A stretch of DNA of 64,000 bases from a virus: positions 32,001-96,000 of the IMG/VR virus record IMGVR_UViG_3300028393_000001. One strand, written 5' to 3'. The notes under the pieces are model-generated. The model worked only from the letters and a program-made list of their open reading frames with translations, was not told the origin of the DNA and searched no databases. The position numbers and the translations under genes were made by a program. Shown here in pieces: positions 1 to 32,019 of this stretch; the stretch's first letter is position 1, and every line of letters begins with the position of its first letter.

Positions 1-73
1 CTTACCAGCCCCCATACCCACCATGTAGCAACCTGGCAAAGGTTGCCATTTTGGTAAGGGTTGAGGCGCCAAA

Positions 74-102
74 ATTATACCCCTATCCTGGCCCTTTGTC
101 AA
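74..102 (-). promoter_or_regulatory. Leftward consensus sigma70 promoter (cassette copy 1)
   Basis: Minus strand TTGACA(97-102)-17 bp-TATAAT(74-79) followed by TTTGGCGCC. Confidence 0.75.
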
Positions 103-170
103 GCGATTTATTAATAACCTATTTTTTGTAGGGTTGTTTTATCTGCTGATTCTAGGCTATAATAAACCCA

Positions 171-343
171 TGACAACGACAAACCCCCAACCCTTAAATG
201 ATATCGAATTAGGCAATGATTTTTTTGCCATCGTGGGTGTACCCTGCGAACAACAACGCGCTCCAATGGATGCTGAAACAGCGGCGCGTGATGCTATAAT
301 GCGTAGGCATTATGCAGAATCTTATGGCGATATTTGTAATTGA
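171..343 (+). CDS. Hypothetical pre-early protein
   Basis: ATG at 171 just after TATAAT at 158-163; track ORF 134..343. Confidence 0.5.
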
Positions 344-441
344 AAGGACTTTATCATGTATATATTAAATATCATTTTGTCAATCATTGTCGGCCTGGCA
401 GTTGTTGGCTTTGTTATGTATGTTCAAAAAATTGATGGAGA

Positions 442-675
442 ATGGCTATGATTTTATCTTTTATGGAATTGGCAATTGATTCTAGACAATTCAATGGTCG
501 AAGCTCTCAAATGGCGCGCGCGCTGGTAATTAATAAGGCTTGTGATTATATCATGCACTACCTATACCCTCACAAGCATGAAGAAAATGTCGTACCCCAT
601 GCCGATTTGGCAATTGTTAATTTTGTGACTGGTACTGTTGAATTACCCGTTACGCTTCACCCTGAGTATCATTAA
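442..675 (+). CDS. Hypothetical protein
   Basis: ORF with GGAG RBS. Confidence 0.6.
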   Translation: MAMILSFMELAIDSRQFNGRSSQMARALVINKACDYIMHYLYPHKHEENVVPHADLAIVNFVTGTVELPVTLHPEYH

Positions 676-816
676 AATGAAACTGAAAAAGATTTCTAAA
701 AAGACAATTGAAAAATTCCAGAAAAAATTACAAGAAAAAATCAGGGGACGCGAAAAAAATCGCCAACAACACGAAAAAATGTGATATAATTTAATTTTAC
801 TTGAAAGGCCTTTATT

Positions 817-1200
817 ATGACTATCCTATCCTTCACCTCTGCCAATGGCGGCGTTTCCCATGTTGTCAAGGCAACTACTGCCAAGGCAGTAAATTACACC
901 CCCGAACAAACCGCCAAAATGGTTAGCGAATATCAATCGGGCAATACTGTTGAATCAATTGCCGAATCCCTTGGCAAAACTGTTCGTTCTGTTGTTGCTA
1001 AACTGTCCCGCGAAGGCGTATATCAGGCTAAAACCTACGTTAGCAAATCGGGCGAACCCGTTGCCAAAAAGGACATGGTTGCCGACGCTATTGGTAATGT
1101 TCTCGGTTTGACCGAAGCAGAAACCGAATCGCTTACCAAAGCGAATAAGACTGCGCTTTCGAAAATCTTTGCTGCTTTGGCAAATAGCAAACCCGTTTAA
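817..1200 (+). CDS. T5 A2-like DNA-binding protein, paralog 1
   Basis: HTH-like IAESLGKTVRSVVAKLSREGVY and ESLTKANKTAL resemble T5 A2; own promoter and terminator. Confidence 0.75.
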   Translation: MTILSFTSANGGVSHVVKATTAKAVNYTPEQTAKMVSEYQSGNTVESIAESLGKTVRSVVAKLSREGVYQAKTYVSKSGEPVAKKDMVADAIGNVLGLTEAETESLTKANKTALSKIFAALANSKPV

Positions 1201-1206
1201 GGTTTG

Positions 1207-1241
1207 GAAACCCTGGTCAATTTGACCAGGGTTTCTTTTTT
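1207..1241 (+). terminator. Rho-independent terminator
   Basis: GAAACCCTGGTCA/TGACCAGGGTTTC stem plus T tract. Confidence 0.85.
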
Positions 1242-1246
1242 GGTAT

Positions 1247-1267
1247 ATGGTCGCTTCAAGCGACCAT
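1247..1267. repeat. 21-bp palindrome, copy 1
   Basis: ATGGTCGCTT-C-AAGCGACCAT. Confidence 0.95.
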
Positions 1268-1298
1268 TACTATTTTGGTAAGCATTGGGGCGCCAAAA

Positions 1299-1327
1299 AT
1301 TATACCACAAAAACCTGGCTGTGTCAA
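1299..1327 (-). promoter_or_regulatory. Leftward consensus sigma70 promoter (copy 2)
   Basis: TTGACA(1322-1327)-17-TATAAT(1299-1304) on minus strand. Confidence 0.75.
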
Positions 1328-1383
1328 CTTATTTATTAATAACCTACTTTTTGTAGGGTCATTATATATGGTAGAATTTACCC

Positions 1384-1740
1384 ATGAAAACGCTACAACA
1401 CAAAATTGATTTTGTTACCAATGGCATTTGGCTTGCGCTAATGGAATCATATCCAAAATTGATACGATTCGATGCTCCAAAAATTGTGCTATGTAATCGG
1501 CTTACCCGCACGGCAGGCAAAAATTATCAGGAAGAAAATCGTATTCATTTAGGCAATAAATTCTTCGCTAATAATCATAAAGCTATGATGCTGGAAATTT
1601 TGCCGCATGAAATAGCGCATCAGGCCGATTTTAATTTATTCGGCGTATATGAAAAACATGGTGGGCATGGCCCTAATTGGTGTGAAATCATGGTAAAATT
1701 AGGCTTACCCGCTAATCGTTATCACTCACTCACAATATGA
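1384..1740 (+). CDS. SprT-like zinc metalloprotease domain protein
   Basis: RLTRTAG, HEIAH and GHGxxW motifs. Confidence 0.85.
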   Translation: MKTLQHKIDFVTNGIWLALMESYPKLIRFDAPKIVLCNRLTRTAGKNYQEENRIHLGNKFFANNHKAMMLEILPHEIAHQADFNLFGVYEKHGGHGPNWCEIMVKLGLPANRYHSLTI

Positions 1741-1949
1741 TAAAAATCACTTCATGGCTTGGCACAATCGCTTCAATCATTGGGGCTTTTTTGGTAGCAT
1801 CGCAAATTGTATTCATTGGCTATTTGGCATTTATTGTCGGGTCGGCATCATGGTTGATTGTGGGTGTAGCGCGTAGGGATTCATCACTAATCGTTTTGAA
1901 TTTCGTTTTCTTTTTGGCTAACATATTGGGGATATATAATGCTTGGTAA
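1737..1949 (+). CDS. Small 3-TM membrane protein
   Basis: Three hydrophobic segments; ATGA overlap with upstream gene. Confidence 0.7.
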   Translation: MIKITSWLGTIASIIGAFLVASQIVFIGYLAFIVGSASWLIVGVARRDSSLIVLNFVFFLANILGIYNAW

Positions 1950-2070
1950 AATTTTGGTAACTATTTTCTTTCCTGTAATTGCCCTCTTAGATTGGACAAT
2001 TTCAAATTATCCGCTTCGCGACTTCTGGAAAAATAACCGTGAAGCATACCTAGATTTTATGAAAGATTAA

Positions 2071-2097
2071 TCAAAAAGGCAACTATTGCCTTTTTGA
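2071..2097. terminator. Bidirectional terminator
   Basis: TCAAAAAGGCAA/TTGCCTTTTTGA. Confidence 0.75.
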
Positions 2098-2108
2098 AGG
2101 CACCAAAA

Positions 2109-2129
2109 ATGGTCGCTTCAAGCGACCAT
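2109..2129. repeat. 21-bp palindrome, copy 2
   Basis: ATGGTCGCTTCAAGCGACCAT. Confidence 0.95.
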
Positions 2130-2214
2130 TATCATTTTGACTACTATCGCCTGGGGCTGGTCAATAGAAAAATTCAATCGCAAAACCTGGCCGTGTTCAT
2201 GCTATAATTCGCCT

Positions 2215-2688
2215 ATGAAAAACATTATCATATTTGACCTAGACGAAACTGTCATAAATTCGTCACATCGCACACCTAATAACCCTGATGGCACTCTAAA
2301 TTTAGATGCCTATATTCGGTTACATAATCCCGAAAATGTCGCAAAAGATACATTATTGCCAATTGCACAATTAATGCGTGCTCGGTATGCAATGGGCGAT
2401 TATATCATTGTTTTGACTGCTCGCGATATGAAACCATGCGATTATCAATTCTTAAATGATTACAATTTGCCTTATCATAAAATAATGTCGCGTGACCAAG
2501 CAACGGCAAAGCATTACAAAATGAAAGACGGCGAATATAAAATGCGCTGGATTAAACCATTCTTAAATTTAAAACAATTTGCAGGTCGGCAAGTTGTTAT
2601 GTTCGATGATGCTAAACCCGTAAAATCAGCACTCAGAAAATTATTTCCTGTTTTATGTGCTCACAAAGTAAATGCACGTTTTGCGTGA
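2215..2688 (+). CDS. HAD-superfamily phosphatase
   Basis: FDLDET motif I, LTAR motif II, K and FDD motifs III/IV; start refined to ATG 2215. Confidence 0.85.
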   Translation: MKNIIIFDLDETVINSSHRTPNNPDGTLNLDAYIRLHNPENVAKDTLLPIAQLMRARYAMGDYIIVLTARDMKPCDYQFLNDYNLPYHKIMSRDQATAKHYKMKDGEYKMRWIKPFLNLKQFAGRQVVMFDDAKPVKSALRKLFPVLCAHKVNARFA

Positions 2689-2721
2689 TATAATAACTCT
2701 CTTATTAACTGAAAGCATATA

Positions 2722-3420
2722 ATGGCCAAAAAACAATTTTTCGCGATTCTCGACACCGAGACTACAATTTCGGATACTGTTGCCGATTTTGCAATTATTA
2801 TCGTTGACCGCGAAGGCAAAATTCACAATCAATGCGCGGTACTGGTTGCTGGTCATTATGGCAATCATGAGTTATTCCATGATAAAAATGCAAATGATAT
2901 TTGGGGGTACGCTGGTTTAGAAAAACGTAAAGCAAATTATGCGACAATGCTAGAATCGGGCAATCGTATGCTTGCTTCAACTAATGCTATCAATAAATGG
3001 ATTAATCAAGCAATTGGCAAGTATAACCCCTCATTGACTGCTTACAATTTGGCATTCGATTTGGCAAAATGTGCCAATACTGATATTGATTTATCAGGCT
3101 TTACTTCCAAATTTTGCCTATGGCAAGCGGCGGTAGGTAATATCTGCAATAAAAAAGCATTCAAGCAATTTGCCCTCGATAATCACGCATTTAATAATGC
3201 GACTAAACTAGGCAATATGACATTCAAAACCAATGCCGAGATTGTATGCGGTTTTATTAATAATAATTTCATTGAGGAACCACACACCGCCTTAGAAGAT
3301 GCCCGCGATTTTGAACTGCCTATTTTGACTACAGTTATCAAAAAACGCAATTGGCGCGATAATATCACTGCTTACGCTTGGCAAGATTTTCAAGTAAAAA
3401 ATCACTTTACCGCAAAGTAA
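2722..3420 (+). CDS. DEDDh 3'-5' exonuclease (DnaQ-like)
   Basis: LDTET, AYNLAFD and HTALEDA motifs. Confidence 0.85.
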   Translation: MAKKQFFAILDTETTISDTVADFAIIIVDREGKIHNQCAVLVAGHYGNHELFHDKNANDIWGYAGLEKRKANYATMLESGNRMLASTNAINKWINQAIGKYNPSLTAYNLAFDLAKCANTDIDLSGFTSKFCLWQAAVGNICNKKAFKQFALDNHAFNNATKLGNMTFKTNAEIVCGFINNNFIEEPHTALEDARDFELPILTTVIKKRNWRDNITAYAWQDFQVKNHFTAK

Positions 3421-3457
3421 AACGGTATCCAATTTGGCGATGGTCGCCAGGTTGGAT

Positions 3458-3478
3458 ATGGTCGCTTGAAGCGACCAC
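3458..3478. repeat. 21-bp palindrome, copy 3
   Basis: ATGGTCGCTTGAAGCGACCAC. Confidence 0.9.
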
Positions 3479-3547
3479 AATTTTAATCGGGTGTAATGGG
3501 GTAATTTTTCGGGTAATGGGGTAATAACTTTCATTATAGAATTGGCA

Positions 3548-3568
3548 ATGGTCGCTTGAAGCGACCCT
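3548..3568. repeat. 21-bp palindrome, copy 4
   Basis: ATGGTCGCTTGAAGCGACCCT. Confidence 0.9.
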
Positions 3569-3596
3569 TATCATTTTGATAAGGGTCTGCGCCAAA

Positions 3597-3625
3597 ATTT
3601 TATCATAAGCCTGGCCTGGTGTCAA
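3597..3625 (-). promoter_or_regulatory. Leftward sigma70 promoter (copy 3)
   Basis: TTGACA(3620-3625)-17-TAAAAT(3597-3602). Confidence 0.7.
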
Positions 3626-3712
3626 TAGGGATAAACCCTTATGTTGTATTTTTTCACACTTGCCCATTGGTGGGGTTTTCTGCTATAATAAATTTTTAAA
3701 TGAAAGGCTATT

Positions 3713-4342
3713 ATGATTAAATCTATCGGCGATAATTATGTGAGATTCGCAAAATCTGATTTTTCAGAATTACGGCGTCAATTGTCAATTCTTGAAGGTT
3801 ATATTTTTGGCAAGAATAAATCTGCAATGACTGCGGATTATTGGGGCGTATGCGAAGAAGGTGGCGAAGAAGATACCATTGTCAAATTGGCAGATGGTTT
3901 GACGGGTAAACCCTTGGGCATTACTTGGCAAAAAATCGTGAAACATTTTCCTGCACTAATTGCAGAATTAGACAAGCATGGTTTGCACTACTATATCGGC
4001 AAAAATTATGTTGGTAATTGGGGCGTTCATCGTCATATTTATGATGAATCTTCAACAATGAATTTGTGCCTGCTAGTAAACGGCAATAATGGCGGGACTG
4101 TTAACTTTCACGAATTTGACAATGATTCAGAATTTTTTGATGAATTGTCCGATGACCATATTTTCGATTTGCATCATGCATCGTTCGAAGAAGGAACAAT
4201 TACAGAATCGGTAAAGATTAAAGACGGCGACTGCTTCTCTTTTAATACTGGTCAATGGCACTCGCACATTGTCCAAGGCGAAAAAGCAGAATTATTTTTG
4301 CTACACTTTCGTGATGCCACTTCTGTACATGATTTAGCATAA
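3713..4342 (+). CDS. Hypothetical protein, possible cupin/oxygenase-like fold
   Basis: HRH and FNTGQWHSH motifs in beta-rich C-terminal half. Confidence 0.5.
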   Translation: MIKSIGDNYVRFAKSDFSELRRQLSILEGYIFGKNKSAMTADYWGVCEEGGEEDTIVKLADGLTGKPLGITWQKIVKHFPALIAELDKHGLHYYIGKNYVGNWGVHRHIYDESSTMNLCLLVNGNNGGTVNFHEFDNDSEFFDELSDDHIFDLHHASFEEGTITESVKIKDGDCFSFNTGQWHSHIVQGEKAELFLLHFRDATSVHDLA

Positions 4343-4345
4343 AAC

Positions 4346-4377
4346 AAGGGTTGCCAAATTGGCAACCCTCTTTTTTC
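4346..4377. terminator. Terminator, probably bidirectional
   Basis: AGGGTTGCCA/TGGCAACCCT stem with T tract downstream and A-rich tract upstream. Confidence 0.8.
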
Positions 4378-4381
4378 TATA

Positions 4382-4402
4382 ATGGTCGCTTTAAGCGACC
4401 AT
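4382..4402. repeat. 21-bp palindrome, copy 5
   Basis: ATGGTCGCTTTAAGCGACCAT. Confidence 0.95.
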
Positions 4403-4431
4403 TGTCATTTTGGCAAGGGGCTGGCGCCAAA

Positions 4432-4460
4432 ATTTTACTCTAACCCTGGCCCTTTGTCAA
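4432..4460 (-). promoter_or_regulatory. Leftward sigma70 promoter (copy 4)
   Basis: TTGACA(4455-4460)-17-TAAAAT(4432-4437). Confidence 0.7.
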
Positions 4461-4596
4461 TAGGTGTTTACCCCTATGTTGTATTTTCACAAAAATAAAA
4501 AATAACTTGAATTCCTGGCCTTTTGTCTATATAATAGAGGCTTAGCAGGCAGTAAAGGGAAACTGTAAAAAATCCCTGATTCTCTTGGAGTGTACT

Positions 4597-4923
4597 ATGG
4601 CAGAAAAAGCCGTCAATTATACCGCAGAACAAACTGCGGTAATGGTGTCCGATTACCAGTCGGGTGTAGGTGTGGAACAAATCGCTTTGTCGCTTGGCAA
4701 ATCGGTGCGTTCGGTGGTTGCGAAATTGTCTCGCGAAAAAGTATATGTTGCCAAAACGTATACTACCAAAACGGGCGAGGCCGTTGCCAAAAAGGATGCC
4801 GTTGCAGACGCAATCGGCGCGGTGCTCAAGCTCACTGAGGCTGAGACCGAATCCTTGACAAAAGCCAATAAAACGGCTTTGGCTAAAATTTTTGCGGCGC
4901 TTGCCAATAGCAAGCCCATGTAA
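4597..4923 (+). CDS. T5 A2-like DNA-binding protein, paralog 2
   Basis: Highly similar to 817..1200; GGAG RBS before ATG 4597. Confidence 0.75.
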   Translation: MAEKAVNYTAEQTAVMVSDYQSGVGVEQIALSLGKSVRSVVAKLSREKVYVAKTYTTKTGEAVAKKDAVADAIGAVLKLTEAETESLTKANKTALAKIFAALANSKPM

Positions 4924-4935
4924 AATTTGGCAATG

Positions 4936-4963
4936 AAAGCCCGCTTAGGCGGGTTTTCTTTTT
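4936..4963 (+). terminator. Rho-independent terminator
   Basis: CCCGC-TTAG-GCGGG plus T tract. Confidence 0.8.
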
Positions 4964-5004
4964 CCGCAATAGTTGCCTTTTTGGTAATGGTCACCAGGGT
5001 GATA

Positions 5005-5025
5005 ATGGTCGCTTCAGGCGACCAC
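5005..5025. repeat. 21-bp palindrome, copy 6 (imperfect)
   Basis: ATGGTCGCTTCAGGCGACCAC. Confidence 0.85.
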
Positions 5026-5070
5026 TATTTTTGCGAATCGTTGCCTTTTTGGCGACTACCACTAAATCGA

Positions 5071-5095
5071 TAACGGTCGCTTCAAGCGACCGTTA
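5071..5095. repeat. Palindrome, copy 7 (compensatory variant)
   Basis: TAACGGTCGCTT-C-AAGCGACCGTTA. Confidence 0.9.
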
Positions 5096-5187
5096 TTTTC
5101 GCATGCTTAAAGCATGCGCCAGTGGCTGCGCCAGTGGTCATATGAAATTCTGCTACCTCGTGTGCCCTGCGCCAGTGGCTGCGCCAA

Positions 5188-5217
5188 ATTATAACAGAAA
5201 GACTGAGGGCGTGTCAA
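5188..5217 (-). promoter_or_regulatory. Leftward sigma70 promoter (copy 5)
   Basis: TTGACA(5212-5217)-18-TATAAT(5188-5193). Confidence 0.65.
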
Positions 5218-5381
5218 GTAAATAATTTCTTACTTGAACCTGGTAGTCGGTTCCGCTATAATAATTACTTAGACAGGCAGATAGGGCCAAACGGGTACAA
5301 GAAGCGCAAAATTTCTTATTTGACTCTCAGCCCCTAATGCCTTATAATTTATTCATAAACAAACAAACCAAAGGAAGCAAA

Positions 5382-5693
5382 ATGACCGCAAAAATCGTAA
5401 ACTACACCGCAGACCAAGTTGAGAAGTTGGTCGCAGACTACCAGTCGGGCCAATCGGTCGAGATGATTGCTGACAGCCTAGGCAAGTCGGTGCGCTCGGT
5501 TGTGGCTAAGCTCAGTCGTGAAGGCGTGTACCAAGCTAGGAGCTACGTCTCTAAGACTGGTGCAAAGCCTGTTAAAAAGGACCTGGTTGCTGACCAGATT
5601 GCCAATATCCTCCTGCTTACTGAAGCAGAGGCAGATAGCCTGACCAAGGCTAACAAGACCGCCCTGACTAAAATCCTGGCTGGCTTGCAGTAA
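5382..5693 (+). CDS. T5 A2-like DNA-binding protein, paralog 3
   Basis: Same motifs as 817..1200; AAGGA RBS before ATG 5382. Confidence 0.75.
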   Translation: MTAKIVNYTADQVEKLVADYQSGQSVEMIADSLGKSVRSVVAKLSREGVYQARSYVSKTGAKPVKKDLVADQIANILLLTEAEADSLTKANKTALTKILAGLQ

Positions 5694-5724
5694 ACGCCGC
5701 AGTTTAGGGTCAAGAAATATTCAC

Positions 5725-5753
5725 TTGAATCATGACCCTAAACCTTGTATAAT
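5725..5753 (+). promoter_or_regulatory. sigma70 promoter of the large ncRNA, overlapped by an 11-bp inverted repeat
   Basis: TTGAAT-17-TATAAT; GTTTAGGGTCA(5702-5712)/TGACCCTAAAC(5733-5743). Confidence 0.75.
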
Positions 5754-5757
5754 AGAT

Positions 5758-6506
5758 TTATGATTAGGCGATAACATAATAAAAATTATAATTCGCCGAC
5801 TCATAATGCAGGAATCGGAAAAGTTAGTAGCTGGTTCGATGCCAGCCCCGTCATCTTAGGGTGCCGGGTATGCTTATGTAGGTAAAGCGACCACTTCCAG
5901 CCTGCAGAGAGGTACCGATCCTCCAAAAACGGCTGTGGTTGGGGGTAACATCTGAAGATAGGAACCCTGGGGTTACTAACACCATCATGAAAAGTTAGGG
6001 GAGAAAGAACTTCCGATCAAATACAGCTATCATCTAACAAAGATCTGGGTTTCATCCAGCCATGTAGGTATGGACTCCTACTAGCGCACGGACTTATACA
6101 CGTAGAGTCATAAAATATACGCGGTCGAATAGCCTATGTTACAGGCTTGACTAGGCAACTTTGAAGCATACTCCAGCTAACCACTGGCTAAGGCGCTCAG
6201 GTTTAGGGTCAGGTAAGGGGTGTGGTGCCCTGAGCCAACATGGAGAGTACAATGACAGTAACTATCCCAAACAAAAAACTGTTACTGAGGAAACCAGCAG
6301 AGAAAGGCAGTATGTAAGCTCCGGCTGTGTACGTTCTCTATAGGATAACCGATTAAAATTAGCACAGTTAGATAAGCTCTGACGTTCTCTACTACCATAT
6401 AACCCCTGACAAGGTTGCGGCTAGAGGCTCACCTTACGACTGTAGGCCTGTCAAGCCTTAGCTAATCAACTAGCCCCTACGGAGTCATGCCCGTAGGGGC
6501 TTTTTG
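5758..6506 (+). ncRNA. Large (~750 nt) structured non-coding RNA, family not recognised
   Basis: Promoter-to-terminator unit with no credible ORF; many helices including long-range 5814-5825/6008-6017 and 6143-6156/6446-6458; T-loop-like hairpin at 5830-5846. Confidence 0.7.
6472..6506 (+). terminator. Rho-independent terminator
   Basis: AGCCCCTACGG/CCGTAGGGGCT plus T tract. Confidence 0.9.
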
Positions 6507-6554
6507 TTGCTTAAAAATAAAGAACCTGCAGAATTCTGGACGTCCGGCGCCAAA

Positions 6555-6583
6555 ATTATACAGTGCCTGAGTGAGTTTGTCAA
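6555..6583 (-). promoter_or_regulatory. Leftward consensus sigma70 promoter (copy 6)
   Basis: TTGACA(6578-6583)-17-TATAAT(6555-6560), then TTTGGCGCC. Confidence 0.75.
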
Positions 6584-6824
6584 GTGTGGATTCCTCATCG
6601 TCTGAAGTGCCGCTGAATACAAGTCTGTTTTTTAAGGTGCCCTCTAATAGGTAGTCTGTTAATGAAACTCATAGGTTTTGTTTTTAAAAATTAGTGTAAC
6701 CTCTAGGTTCTGACCCTAAGCTGCCCAAATCAGGGCCCAGTTGCCCCTGAGTGCCCGAAATTAGCTTAATCTGACATAATTCGAGAAACCTGCGGAAATT
6801 TAGACATTTAGGACTTTAAAACGA

Positions 6825-6856
6825 AAAAAAGCCCCCTACTTTGACATAGGGGGCTA
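6825..6856 (-). terminator. Terminator of the A1-A2 unit
   Basis: AGCCCCCTA/TAGGGGGCT stem with A tract on the plus strand. Confidence 0.85.
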
Positions 6857-6862
6857 ATTGGC

Positions 6863-7165
6863 CTAATTTAGGGTCAGTTTCTTCTCAATTAAGGCTAAAA
6901 CTGACTTATTTACCTTCTCCAGCGATTCAAGCATATCCGAATTTACATCTAGTAGCTTAGCGATGCGCTCTATATATTCGTCCTTCTTCACAGGAACTTC
7001 ACCACGCTTGGTCAAGTACTCCTTCTTTTTGTACACGCCCAGACTGCTTAGCTTAGCGATGACTGATCTTTCTGGAACGCCCAGACCCTCAGCTAAAGCA
7101 GACACTGGCACTCCGGCCAAGTAATCCGCTTGTAATTTCTTTGTTGTTAGTTCGTCGTATTTCAC
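6863..7165 (-). CDS. T5 A2-like DNA-binding protein (next to A1)
   Basis: RSVIAKLSSLGVY and ESLEKVNK motifs; synteny with A1-like gene. Confidence 0.75.
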   Translation of the reverse strand: MKYDELTTKKLQADYLAGVPVSALAEGLGVPERSVIAKLSSLGVYKKKEYLTKRGEVPVKKDEYIERIAKLLDVNSDMLESLEKVNKSVLALIEKKLTLN

Positions 7166-7168
7166 TGC

Positions 7169-8035
7169 TTATTCCCAAGGTAATTTAGTTAGGGTAGTCC
7201 ACTTGGCTACTGGTTCTGTTTTGATAAGAGGTTCTGGGTGACTATCCCAATTTAAGGGATCACAGATCATGTCTTGATGTCTAAGGTCTGGATGACAGAC
7301 CCAACACTGTGTAATCATTAGTCTTGATAGCTTATTAAGTAAGCCAATCTCGGAATCATTAATACCATATAAAATCCAAGCAGCCTTAGGGTCTCTGCTG
7401 GTACCTTCACGAGGGCCTGATCGGACTAGGAGTCCTTCCTGGCGCAGCCTTAGTAACTCACCTATCTCGATCTCAGGCCACTCGGTGATACAGGCTTCAG
7501 CTAAGTCTTCTGGCATTACAGCCTCTAAACCTTCACGAGACCACTTAGAGTAGGGCACTCCCTGATAACGCTTAATTCCAGCTAAGATAAGTGGAGTTAA
7601 TGAGGAGAATTCTGGTTGTGCAATCTGTTTAGGCACTAGCTTGCTACGAGGTAATCTGCAGGCTAAAAACCAGCATCCTCGACTAAACTCTGACCCTAAG
7701 TTGAGCTTAGCTGTGCTTCTTGGGTCTACTAAACCATCTTTATACACTAAAGTCCATTGACCAAAATAGTGTAAGAGCTGGTCTAAGAACCAGCTAGACT
7801 GGCTAGCAAGTCCTACGGAGTCAGCTAGTTGAGCTAAGATAAGTGGGTTAGCCGTGTTAAAGGCTTGGATCGGCCAAGCCGTTAAATCCCGTTTTTTGCC
7901 TCGCGGCAGCTTATCGGGGGTGGGAATTTCAGTTCTATTTTGCATTTTTAAGATTAATTTTAGCTTTTTAAAATGGGATTTCTCCAACTTAGATGGAGGA
8001 ACAGGGGGACCCTCAATTGCAGACGGTTGCTGCAA
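7169..8035 (-). CDS. T5 A1-like protein (host DNA degradation / DNA transfer), short version
   Basis: PLILAGIKRYQGVPYSKW and QCWVCHPDLRHQDMI...EPL resemble the T5 A1 C-terminal half as recalled; real start may be ATG 7945. Confidence 0.7.
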   Translation of the reverse strand: MQQPSAIEGPPVPPSKLEKSHFKKLKLILKMQNRTEIPTPDKLPRGKKRDLTAWPIQAFNTANPLILAQLADSVGLASQSSWFLDQLLHYFGQWTLVYKDGLVDPRSTAKLNLGSEFSRGCWFLACRLPRSKLVPKQIAQPEFSSLTPLILAGIKRYQGVPYSKWSREGLEAVMPEDLAEACITEWPEIEIGELLRLRQEGLLVRSGPREGTSRDPKAAWILYGINDSEIGLLNKLSRLMITQCWVCHPDLRHQDMICDPLNWDSHPEPLIKTEPVAKWTTLTKLPWE

Positions 8036-31760: not shown

Positions 31761-32019
31761 ATACGAAAGGAAAATTGTATGAAATTAAAATCTACTCCAG
31801 GTGCAATGGCAAATGCCAAGATACCTACATCCGTAAGCTACGGAGCAGATGCCCCCTCCTTAGATGCTGATATGGGTGTAGAGGATATTAGTCCTACAGG
31901 TACTGATATGGATGATATTCCACCAGGCAGTTTTGAGTTATTGACTCCAACAGTTAATAATATTAAAATTACACACGAAGGTGATATGGGACGACTAAGT
32001 CCCCTAGAATAAAAGATGA

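Follow-up and report, generated by a model that had tools for sequence, protein, structure and literature searches.

Backward-facing sigma70-type promoters joined to hairpins as possible boundary modules in the pre-early-like block of T5-related lake phages

What might a phage gain from a series of consensus promoters that face backward among its genes and have no gene of their own to express? We considered this question in a 64,000-nucleotide stretch of an uncultured virus (positions 32,001 to 96,000 of IMG/VR record IMGVR_UViG_3300028393_000001, hereafter the window), for which a sequence-only reading had claimed six minus-strand promoters spread from 74-102 to 6555-6583. All six are present in the window exactly as that reading described them, each following the pattern TTGACA-N17/18-TA(T/A)AAT-T(2-4)GGCGC (Table 1). 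The -10 box is TATAAT in four copies and TAAAAT in the other two, and the spacer measures 17 nt in five copies and 18 nt in copy 5 alone; scored against the sigma70 hexamers, four copies reach 12/12 and two reach 11/12, with the hexamers inside the range of 16-18 nt usual for a sigma70-type promoter. A shared flank, CATTTTGGTAAG, and the word CCTGGC in the spacers, both reported from the same reading, proved to be real features of the window sequence, and copies 1-5 do stand back-to-back with a rightward promoter, which beside copies 1 and 2 is weaker and was read by eye.

Table 1. Promoter modules and surrounding features, in window coordinates
Feature	Position	Strand	Details
Module 1	65..102	-	-35 TTGACA 97-102; -10 TATAAT 74-79; TTT; GGCGCC 65-70; 17-nt spacer with CCTGGCC (plus strand, 87-93); predicted start ~67
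Module 2	1290..1327	-	-35 1322-1327; -10 TATAAT 1299-1304, TG-extended; TTTT; GGCGC (plus-strand GCGCC 1290-1294); predicted start ~1292
Module 3	3589..3625	-	-35 3620-3625, adjoined by dyad TAGGGATAAACCCTTA (3626-3641); -10 TAAAAT 3597-3602; TTT; GGCGC 3589-3593; 10-bp hairpin (3563-3587) directly downstream; predicted start ~3590
Module 4	4423..4460	-	-35 4455-4460, adjoined by dyad TAGGTGTTTACCCCTA; -10 TAAAAT 4432-4437; TTT; GGCGCC 4423-4428; predicted start ~4425
Module 5	5181..5217	-	-35 5212-5217; 18-nt spacer; -10 TATAAT 5188-5193; TT; GGCGC 5181-5185; short direct repeats GCCACTGGCGCAG downstream; predicted start ~5181
Module 6	6546..6583	-	-35 6578-6583; -10 TATAAT 6555-6560; TTT; GGCGCC 6546-6551; aimed into terminator of ~750-nt non-coding RNA; predicted start ~6548
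21-bp palindrome ATGGTCGCTTCAAGCGACCAT	1247..1267		first hairpin reached by leftward module 2 transcript; TACTATTTTGG comes next on plus strand
Palindrome (2108-2130) and decayed module	2108..2165		CATTTTGA...CTGGTCAATAG; -10/GGCGC part of module gone
Two palindromes	3458-3477, 3549-3566		downstream of module 3
Palindrome	4381..4402		downstream of module 4
Two palindromes	5006-5024, ~5074-5092		downstream of module 5
Intrinsic terminator	1206..1236	+	canonical; of 127-aa gene
Further intrinsic terminators	4347-4369, 4935-4958, 6472-6501	+	rightward
Rightward promoter	3660..3689	+	TTGCCC-18-TATAAT, TG-extended; back-to-back with module 3
Further rightward promoters	4507-4535, 5234-5262, 5320-5348, 5725-5753	+
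Weaker rightward promoters	134-163, ~1350-1377	+	read by eye
127-aa HTH protein	817..1200	+	first of three paralogues
Other two HTH paralogues	4597-4923, 5382-5693	+
HAD phosphatase	2215..2688	+	homologue of T5 pre-early 5'-deoxyribonucleotidase Dmp

Several counts argue against a chance origin of these elements. Across the whole 123,962-bp genome a perfect TTGACA-N16-18-TAnAAT occurs 11 times, and six of these occurrences are the modules, all on one strand and all within 6.5 kb; they are also the six best among 42 promoter-like matches in window positions 1-7200. The string TTTGGCGC appears genome-wide in 8 minus-strand and 3 plus-strand copies, with six of the 8 minus-strand copies belonging to the modules. 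A fixed-spacer pattern allowing up to 3 mismatches, which misses copy 5 with its 18-nt spacer, matched the 64-kb window 5 times where 0.06 matches were expected, and 0/100 shuffled windows reached 5.

A search of related phages, which the sequence-only reading had proposed as a check, recovered the element in 62 IMG/VR viral stretches, with ~230-240 unique copies and 6-15 per genome; 596 Gb of prokaryote genomes and 50,697 deposited phages proved essentially free of it. Using as an unbiased anchor only AAT-T(1-3)-GGCGC, we collected 253 unique sites in relatives, of which 194 carry a perfect TTGACA and 33 more a 5/6 match; the distance is 16-18 nt, so that the -35/-10 spacing, on whose conservation in relatives the proposal had been staked beforehand, is indeed conserved. 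In an 89%-identical relative (L034) the spacers differ while the hexamers and GCGCC are kept. The GGCGC never varies and keeps to a single strand, and the CCTGGC(C) of the spacers is likewise strand-specific. To judge from these matches, the device recurs in dozens of related uncultured lake phages, relatives of T5. With a perfect or 5/6 -35 at most of the relatives' anchor sites, the claim that these are selected sigma70-type RNA-polymerase sites rather than chance matches holds up, and we consider the six elements most likely to be genuine host sigma70 promoters kept by selection, whose firing we infer.

Inspection of the open reading frames gave no credible gene downstream of any of the six window copies, as the earlier reading had maintained. 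The only ATG-started minus-strand ORF just behind any copy (3292-3534, 80 aa) has no Shine-Dalgarno sequence; its N-terminal 38 residues, which are intergenic, are matched only in L034, and its other matches reflect its overlap with a conserved 232-aa gene on the opposite strand. This gene-less, antisense state holds across the lineage. The element is nearly always antisense to the genes that flank it. Of 227 copies classified by crude ORF calls, 176 are followed by an ORF on the other strand, 32 by one on their own strand and 19 by none; in each of 5 whole relatives the matches are all on one strand, with none for a reversed-pattern control. A convergent stop codon lies within 400 nt of 162 of 242 modules, often at 20-100 nt and at a median gap of 71.5 nt (with 42 gaps of only 20-39 nt), and another module follows within 150 nt in a further 44; the other 36 have no such ORF or module close by.

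What the modules do face is usually a hairpin. Of 226 copies, 190 have a perfect stem of 6 bp or more, which begins between -2 and +5 nt from GGCGC in 148; a dyad covers the -10 in 84 of 152 spacer-18 copies, and the distance from -10 to GGCGC varies by 0-5 nt in step with the dyad. The hairpins of the relatives are not flanked by T-rich tails in either direction (2.4 T of 8 past the stem, 1.1 A before it). Their stems are perfect in 132 cases against 18 with one mismatch, and the mismatches include 1 G.T against 6 A.C; perfect stems with no preference for G.T are what would be expected if both RNA strands must fold. In our genome, 17-21-bp palindromes with the core GGTCGC-N5-GCGACC number 8, all from window position -17 to 5091. 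The sequence downstream of the modules is conserved neither between copies nor between phages and is mostly a perfect palindrome lacking a U-tract; this does not fit the suggested family of hairpin sRNAs, if its members are to have a product in common.

The genes around the modules place them in a recognizable context. The HAD phosphatase aligns with T5 Dmp over 171 positions at 30% identity (E 2e-13), and the three HTH paralogues weakly match GcrA, T5 A2 and members of the PHROG 'D5-like regulator' family; by this homology of genes, clear for Dmp and weak for A2, the block is a counterpart by descent of the T5 pre-early (first-step-transfer) region. By the T5 record AY587007 and the Davison 2020 preprint, the two regions also share an abundance of palindromes and a one-strand GCGC signal adjoining a hairpin. 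They differ in that T5 has no backward (antisense) consensus promoters in its terminal repeat, and in that the T5 repeats lie in untranslated regions with paired DnaA boxes (Davison 2020 preprint), a pairing absent here, where DnaA boxes number 9 in 64 kb against 9.05 expected, one of them inside the block.

We tentatively favor, as the likeliest single reading but one held at somewhat less than even confidence, that the six elements are functioning sigma70 promoters and the window's representatives of a boundary module found throughout the lineage. Each module would combine a backward consensus promoter with GGCGC where transcription starts and with a palindromic hairpin, and would close a gene cassette of the T5-pre-early-like block at its 3' end. 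Host polymerase would load at the backward promoter and either sit there or fire a few tens of nucleotides into the hairpin, where it would block, or collide head-on with, any polymerase that had run on past the end of the cassette before it. Both transcripts would need the hairpin, which would fix the stopping point of both polymerases, so that each cassette would be insulated from its neighbors without a U-tract terminator or Rho, and the leftward RNA would be a by-product. The observed geometry, a hairpin lacking intrinsic-terminator features between two converging sources, fits this proposal if the backward promoter fires. A similar arrangement is known from bidirectional terminators between convergent units in Escherichia coli, which are unlike intrinsic terminators and which, according to Wang et al. 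2022 (bioRxiv 10.1101/2022.10.23.513370), require head-on collision, with the hairpin fixing the site and a trailing polymerase helping (collision-driven bidirectional terminators are also attributed there to Ju et al. 2019). In E. coli, however, the opposing polymerase comes from a true gene that converges from kilobases away (10.1101/2022.10.23.513370), whereas here it would come from a dedicated promoter that has no gene and lies 0-60 nt from the hairpin. Several observations count against the boundary-module reading: four window cassettes already have canonical U-tract terminators, the first strong hairpin does not abut GGCGC but is set off by ~19-63 nt in modules 1, 2, 4, 5 and 6, and 36 of the 242 modules lack both a convergent ORF and a further module close by. 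A polymerase a few nucleotides from its start would moreover be a promoter complex and not the elongation complex of the cited work, and this reading does not explain why GGCGC never varies, why CCTGGC(C) in the spacers keeps to one strand, or why a dyad spans the -10 in 84 of the 152 spacer-18 copies.

Promoters of host type directed against or away from early genes with no protein to express have precedents. Lambda OOP RNA overlaps the 3' end of cII and acts on cII, and T7 has a leftward A0 promoter at its left end with no known role; both are single copies, OOP with a defined product, unlike the 6-15 copies per genome and non-conserved products here. By an OOP-like route, a short stable leftward RNA of ~85-250 nt with a 5' hairpin might pair with the pre-early mRNA before it, at the 3' end of that message, and limit the message's life or output. 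We regard such cis-antisense control as unlikely, even though the promoters are strong and converge on gene 3' ends, a hairpin a few nucleotides from the 5' end would stabilize the RNA, and minus-strand terminator-like sites lie within ~85-240 nt of three of the six window copies (4370-4346, 3427-3408, 4953-4940); for module 4, for instance, the palindrome and a bidirectional terminator at 4346-4370 would give an RNA of ~85 nt. The product sequence is not conserved, most hairpins have no U-tract and thus leave the RNA length undefined, and the predicted RNAs, although they fold well (z-scores -2.4 to -8.2), do so because of palindromes that are equally foldable on the other strand; constitutive antisense to the phage's own earliest genes would also need a timing device, and none is seen. 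Sequestration of host polymerase, as had been suggested, would be implausible with so few sites per genome. It is distinctly unlikely that the modules hold very stable, poorly escaping promoter complexes on the first DNA to enter, whether to anchor or ratchet the genome, to make it pause or to protect it, like a T5 injection-stop region spread over many sites: the T5-like character of the block and promoters that seem too perfect, yield no product and share one strand are consistent with polymerase docking of this kind, but it does not predict the tight tie to gene 3' ends, and the paired DnaA boxes that are the hallmark of the T5 stop region are missing. We think it very unlikely that the true signal is a strand-specific DNA site, G^GCGC with a hairpin, which would work as a T5-type nick site or like Chi and whose overlap with a promoter would be incidental. 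T5's major nicks do fall on one strand at R^GCGCRGG, with nick 1 overlapping a palindrome and nick 3 a terminator hairpin, and GGCGC here is invariant and confined to one strand; yet G^GCGC is followed by RGG in none of the six window copies, leaving only ~5 nt in common with the T5 motif, T5's four annotated nick sites have no adjoining promoter and two lie inside genes, and the variable distance from -10 to GGCGC tracks the dyad. Least probable of all, and remote in our view, are late promoters resembling lambda PR', at which a phage factor would permit leftward reading through the hairpins into packaging and structural genes on the same strand. The modules aim at an adjacent same-strand cluster in the window and in 5 of 7 relatives (L053, L061, L057, L016, L013), and the 17-bp palindrome core is conserved in sequence, but L012 gives a mixed picture, L052 shows no clear fit in spite of same-strand ORFs to the left, the cluster has its own 11/12 promoter directly upstream (genome 30229-30257), the nearest module is ~1.9 kb from it across rightward genes, and the copies are many and scattered where one at the cluster would be expected.

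The closest relatives in kind are the promoter-early stem-loops (PeSLs) of T4-type phages, on which Comeau et al. 2014 have reportedly also written. In Arbiol et al. 2010 (PMC2839356), PeSLs are described as repeated intergenic units of a consensus sigma70 promoter and a stem-loop, which may overlap the -10 or sit just downstream, and these units crowd among small variable early genes, marking sites of cassette exchange and mediating the shuffling. PeSL promoters there face forward and run into the Shine-Dalgarno sequence and start codon of the gene that follows (PMC2839356), whereas in our T5-like, not T4-like, phage the promoter faces the previous gene, drives none, carries the invariant GGCGC and leaves the next gene to a separate rightward promoter, so that by analogy the modules may be likened to PeSL-like cassettes with the promoter reversed. 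The statement that no T5-like system of this layout has been described stands for the literature searched, where we found none, but needs qualifying in that PeSLs come close in kind. The intergenic unit might accordingly be mainly a homology patch for cassette swaps between co-infecting phages, with the backward promoter as a passenger or secondary function. In the single close relative L034, a divergent allele stands in place of the Dmp-like gene (window 2208-2702), with conserved intergenic units on either side, and an extra cassette at window 335/343 comprises a tRNA-like sequence, a palindrome, a module and the rightward promoter in copy; this one allele swap and one cassette indel are too small a sample for statistics on cassette gain and loss. 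We nevertheless judge recombination as the main role unlikely, as a homology patch needs neither a perfect -35 and -10 at exact spacing, nor hexamers that are conserved while spacers drift, nor a fixed orientation relative to genes, and this role is compatible with, not exclusive of, that of boundary module. If the boundary-module reading is right, these phages would carry a built-in two-way stop sign for transcription that closes their earliest gene cassettes.

The sequence-only reading had placed six minus-strand elements of the form TTGACA-17/18 nt-TA(T/A)AAT-T(2-4)-GGCGC near the start of the window, and all six were recovered at exactly those positions, with no credible leftward gene behind any of them, again as had been stated. 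A fixed-spacer pattern matched five of these modules against 0.06 expected, the sixth having an 18-nt spacer, and together the modules make up 6 of only 11 perfect TTGACA-N16-18-TAnAAT promoters in the whole genome; they are also the best six promoter-like matches in positions 1-7200, with every rightward promoter scoring lower. TTTGGCGC is rare elsewhere (genome-wide, 8 copies on the minus and 3 on the plus strand), and all eight of the genome's palindromes with a GGTCGC-N5-GCGACC core lie inside the block of small rightward genes that hosts the modules. The module feature is real, strongly non-random and conserved.

Coordinates of the modules and of other features of the genome
Feature	Position	Strand	Remark
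Module 1	window 65-102	-	spacer-17
Module 2	window 1290-1327	-	spacer-17
Module 3	window 3589-3625	-	spacer-17
Module 4	window 4423-4460	-	spacer-17
Module 5	window 5181-5217	-	spacer-18
Module 6	window 6546-6583	-	spacer-17
TAGGG-N5-CCCTA dyads	window 3626-3641, 4461-4476		also in relatives
Small rightward genes	window 1-5700	+	block, with the non-coding RNA
Non-coding RNA	window 5758-6506		~750 nt
-10 box to gene start	window 158-172	+	TATAAT-AAACCC-ATG
-10 box to gene start	window 1369-1386	+	TGgTAGAAT-TTACCC-ATG
-10 box to gene start	window 2200-2217	+	TGcTATAAT-TCGCCT-ATG
SprT-like gene	window 1384-1740		HExxH
SprT-like gene, second	genome 31629-31955		HExxH; found by eye
HAD phosphatase	window 2215-2688		aligns with T5 Dmp
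Open frame	window 4653-4994	-	113 codons
Leftward genes	from window 6863	-	
23 tRNA matches and permuted tmRNA	window 23.8-37 kb		
DnaB-like helicase, family-A polymerase, SNF2-type helicase and SbcC-like genes	window 42-52 kb		
Tape-measure protein	genome 9441-16520		2359 aa
Single ORF	genome 98400-114260	-	5286 aa
18-nt tandem repeats	genome 31088-31180		five copies, just left of the window
Perfect consensus promoter	genome 31284-31312	+	downstream of the repeats

The window spans bases 32001-96000 of a single viral contig of 123,962 bp whose layout is T5-like. Because T5 Dmp (the pre-early 5'-deoxyribonucleotidase) aligns with the HAD phosphatase (30% identity, 171 aligned positions, E 2e-13), and because three helix-turn-helix (HTH) paralogues of 103-127 aa weakly match GcrA and the PHROG 'D5-like regulator' family, the block is the counterpart of the T5 pre-early region. 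The match of these paralogues to T5 A2 is weak (E 0.008, 43 residues), and a solved-structure search with one of them as query returned designed repeat proteins only. The same pre-early block carries two SprT-like zinc-metallopeptidase genes, and antisense to an HTH gene lies a 113-codon open frame 'matching' all relatives, which we read as the shadow of the conserved sense gene and not as a gene. The repeat unit upstream of the perfect rightward promoter is CTATTGCCACAATGCATA. Three rightward genes begin exactly 6 nt past the -10 box, and their mRNAs are probably leaderless; at the third such site the allele of L034, the closest relative, has an ordinary leader that includes a ribosome site.

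As the sequence-only reading had recommended, we sought the same element in related phages, and IMG/VR, scanned with the exact pattern, yielded 62 stretches, in which a regular expression counted 227 copies. By crude ORF calls, the ORF downstream of the promoter lies on the opposite strand in 176 of these copies and on the same strand in 32, and is absent in 19. Since the exact scan required a perfect promoter, we re-anchored it in two ways. With AAT-T(1-3)-GGCGC alone as anchor, 194 of 253 unique sites have a perfect TTGACA and 33 have five of its six bases, at 16-18 nt, and the remaining 26 lie mostly within coding sequence. With the promoter alone as anchor, T(0-5)GGCGC follows 231 of the 425 unique TTGACN-N16-18-TAnAAT sequences in the stretches, and GGCGC is therefore the mark of one promoter class. 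Five related records were scanned whole (~100 kb; three have end repeats). Each carries its matches, 15 in total, on a single strand and gathered in a span of a few kb; the one outlier, in the record G001, sits close to the opposite end of the contig, across the junction. The reversed-pattern control in these records gave zero matches.

Across 596 Gb of prokaryote genomes the pattern is almost never seen, and at the sensitivity used it is absent from 50,697 deposited phages, in which window 1-7000 (blastn) and a 232-aa protein (tblastn) also found no match. The 38-nt module returned from deposited phages only two 31-nt matches of 90% identity within a Staphylococcus phage gene, which we discarded. 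Host mimicry was likewise rejected, as the prokaryote scan yielded only 13 stretches, in scattered taxa and with one probably a binned phage contig.

Conservation of the -35/-10 spacing, on which the earlier proposal had been made to depend, is borne out in L034 (~89% identity), where the hexamers, their spacing and GCGCC are conserved and the spacer sequences differ. The hexamers change only in one -35, now TTGACG, and in two -10 boxes that are swapped between TATAAT and TAAAAT. L034 also has a divergent allele in place of the Dmp-like gene, bounded by conserved intergenic units, and an extra cassette consisting of a tRNA-like sequence, a palindrome, a module and a copy of the rightward promoter. 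The tRNA-like sequence that opens this cassette (L034 ~5375-5290; window junction 335/343) has a TTCGAATCC loop and a CCA end, and replaces a protein gene.

The modules fall into two classes by spacer length. In the spacer-17 class, to which five of the six window copies belong, a TAGGG-N5-CCCTA dyad often abuts the -35, between the back-to-back promoters, and resembles the operator of a dimeric regulator; the spacer often contains CCAGG, and a dyad over the -10 is found in only 2 of 80 copies. The spacer-18 class has a dyad across the -10 (e.g., CCAAAATTATA-TGn-TATAATTTTGG), which reaches 9 bp or more in 84 of the 152 copies and whose arms covary with T-run length (mean 6.93 pairs vs. 4.87 with shuffled partners, maximum 5.29 in 200 shuffles); module 5, the window's spacer-18 copy, lacks it. 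The word CCTGGCC occurs at window positions 87, 2186, 3610, 4445 and 4514, and CCTGGC also at 32, 394, 1314 and 5675. It is strand-specific, the 6.8-kb block holding 9 of the genome's 17 plus-strand copies, which sit within promoter spacers, and 1 of its 14 minus-strand copies. In these spacers the word always lies on the plus strand, for leftward and rightward promoters alike, and it might mark the site of a factor or of methylation.

Downstream of GGCGC, 190 of 226 unique copies have a perfect hairpin whose stem measures 6 bp or more; it starts at -2 to +5 nt in 148, and neither flank is rich in T (of 8 nt, 2.4 T past the stem and 1.1 A ahead of it). Raising the minimum stem to 8 bp leaves 132 perfect hairpins and 18 that carry a single mismatch (1 G.T, 6 A.C, 11 other), so that the comparison of G.T with A.C for the transcribed hairpin strand, 1 vs. 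6, comes from only 18 imperfect stems. A convergent ORF has its stop codon within 400 nt of 162 of 242 modules (median 71.5 nt; 42 at 20-39 nt); in 44 a second module comes next within 150 nt, and for 36 neither holds. A divergent promoter with a score of 10/12 or more is present within 150 nt of only 83 of 240 modules, and in these the commonest -35-to--35 gap is 30-37 bp, with no single fixed phase between the back-to-back boxes.

A search for public runs gave 24, of which 6 are recorded as RNA; the RNA data used consisted of four runs as Logan contigs, in which strand, starts and ends are not preserved. Contigs from three lake metatranscriptomes fall on genes and on the non-coding RNA (5818-6314, far deeper) and none on modules, which is uninformative for leftward transcription; the fourth run, a viral-fraction RNA library, gave short pieces over nearly everything. 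Contig depths on the non-coding RNA are ~95-435, compared with 2-8 on neighbouring genes, in those metatranscriptomes. An Rfam search of window 1-7200 returned no family, this RNA having no match at gathering score. A transcript from module 6 would be antisense to it.

Both hexamers and their spacing are conserved, which shows that binding of sigma70 polymerase is under selection, and with no product conserved it is probably the binding or firing itself that counts and not the RNA. The fixed convergent orientation, the adjacency to stop codons and the perfect, U-less palindrome at the start site suggest a boundary function. As described by Wang et al. (2022, bioRxiv 10.1101/2022.10.23.513370), E. 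coli bidirectional terminators between convergent units are unlike intrinsic terminators, require head-on collision at a site fixed by the hairpin, and are improved by trailing polymerases. Putting these module features together with that work, we infer, as a tentative reading that falls somewhat short of an even chance, that at the end of each cassette the backward promoter provides a polymerase that blocks or collides with oncoming transcription. The hairpin would have to form in both transcripts, which would explain the perfect palindromic stems, and tandem modules would be a source of trailing polymerases. Against this proposal, four window cassettes already have canonical terminators, and only the hairpin of module 3 abuts GGCGC; GGCGC itself, the word CCTGGC(C) and the dyad over the -10 are unaccounted for. 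More doubtful is the stronger claim that the modules are purpose-built 'active terminators', with a gene-less consensus promoter serving solely to supply the polymerase at a U-less palindromic hairpin, which would give every pre-early cassette factor-independent, two-way insulation.

Among other explanations, OOP-like antisense RNAs seem unlikely. Recombination patches of the kind formed by the promoter-early stem-loops (PeSLs) of T4-type phages are compatible with the collision or roadblock reading, and we think them rather improbable. PeSLs are nevertheless the nearest described kind: according to Arbiol et al. (2010, PMC2839356), they combine a consensus promoter with a stem-loop among variable early genes and mediate shuffling. 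In a PeSL, however, the promoter is co-directional with the next gene, and since the modules lack this defining feature, they are a variant with the promoter reversed, carried by another group of phages, and not PeSLs.

Polymerase docking for DNA entry has a slim chance of being correct, as the paired DnaA boxes that are a hallmark of the T5 injection stop are absent here. A nick or Chi-like strand signal has a slimmer one: G^GCGC is common to the modules and to the one-strand nicks of T5 (R^GCGCRGG), but only that part of the nick motif is matched, and T5 nick sites have no adjoining promoter. Late antiterminated promoters are very improbable, given that the late gene cluster has its own promoter. 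We also considered an N4-like virion RNA polymerase with hairpin promoters. Of the genome ORFs of 5286, 2359, 1717 and 1319 aa, only the first three were run through Pfam and PHROGs; they gave a Laminin-G/tail-fibre match (for the 5286-aa ORF its sole family match, near residue 2940), a tape-measure match and none, respectively, and the idea was dropped because no polymerase appeared among these three.

The T5 terminal repeat has no backward consensus promoters, and, in agreement with the sequence-only reading, our search of the literature on T5 nicks, pre-early promoters, the injection stop and T5-like antisense promoters turned up no account of modules with backward promoters in T5-like phages. 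If the backward promoters serve specifically as collision or roadblock partners, they would constitute the first natural promoters kept for stopping transcription and not for starting a product, and the 100-bp module, with E. coli and sigma70 holoenzyme, would offer a simple experimental system for the recently proposed collision termination. As compact bidirectional insulators, the modules could also serve as synthetic biology parts. In a bolder version of the 'active terminator' reading, the strand-specific G^GCGC and hairpin, which recall the context of T5's unexplained nicks, would couple the loading of polymerase with nicking or with the entry of DNA in two steps. The modules delimit pre-early cassettes by sequence alone in a large uncultured lake phage group, and they may bear on two puzzles of T5, namely the purpose of its one-strand GCGC nicks and the handling of its first-transfer DNA.
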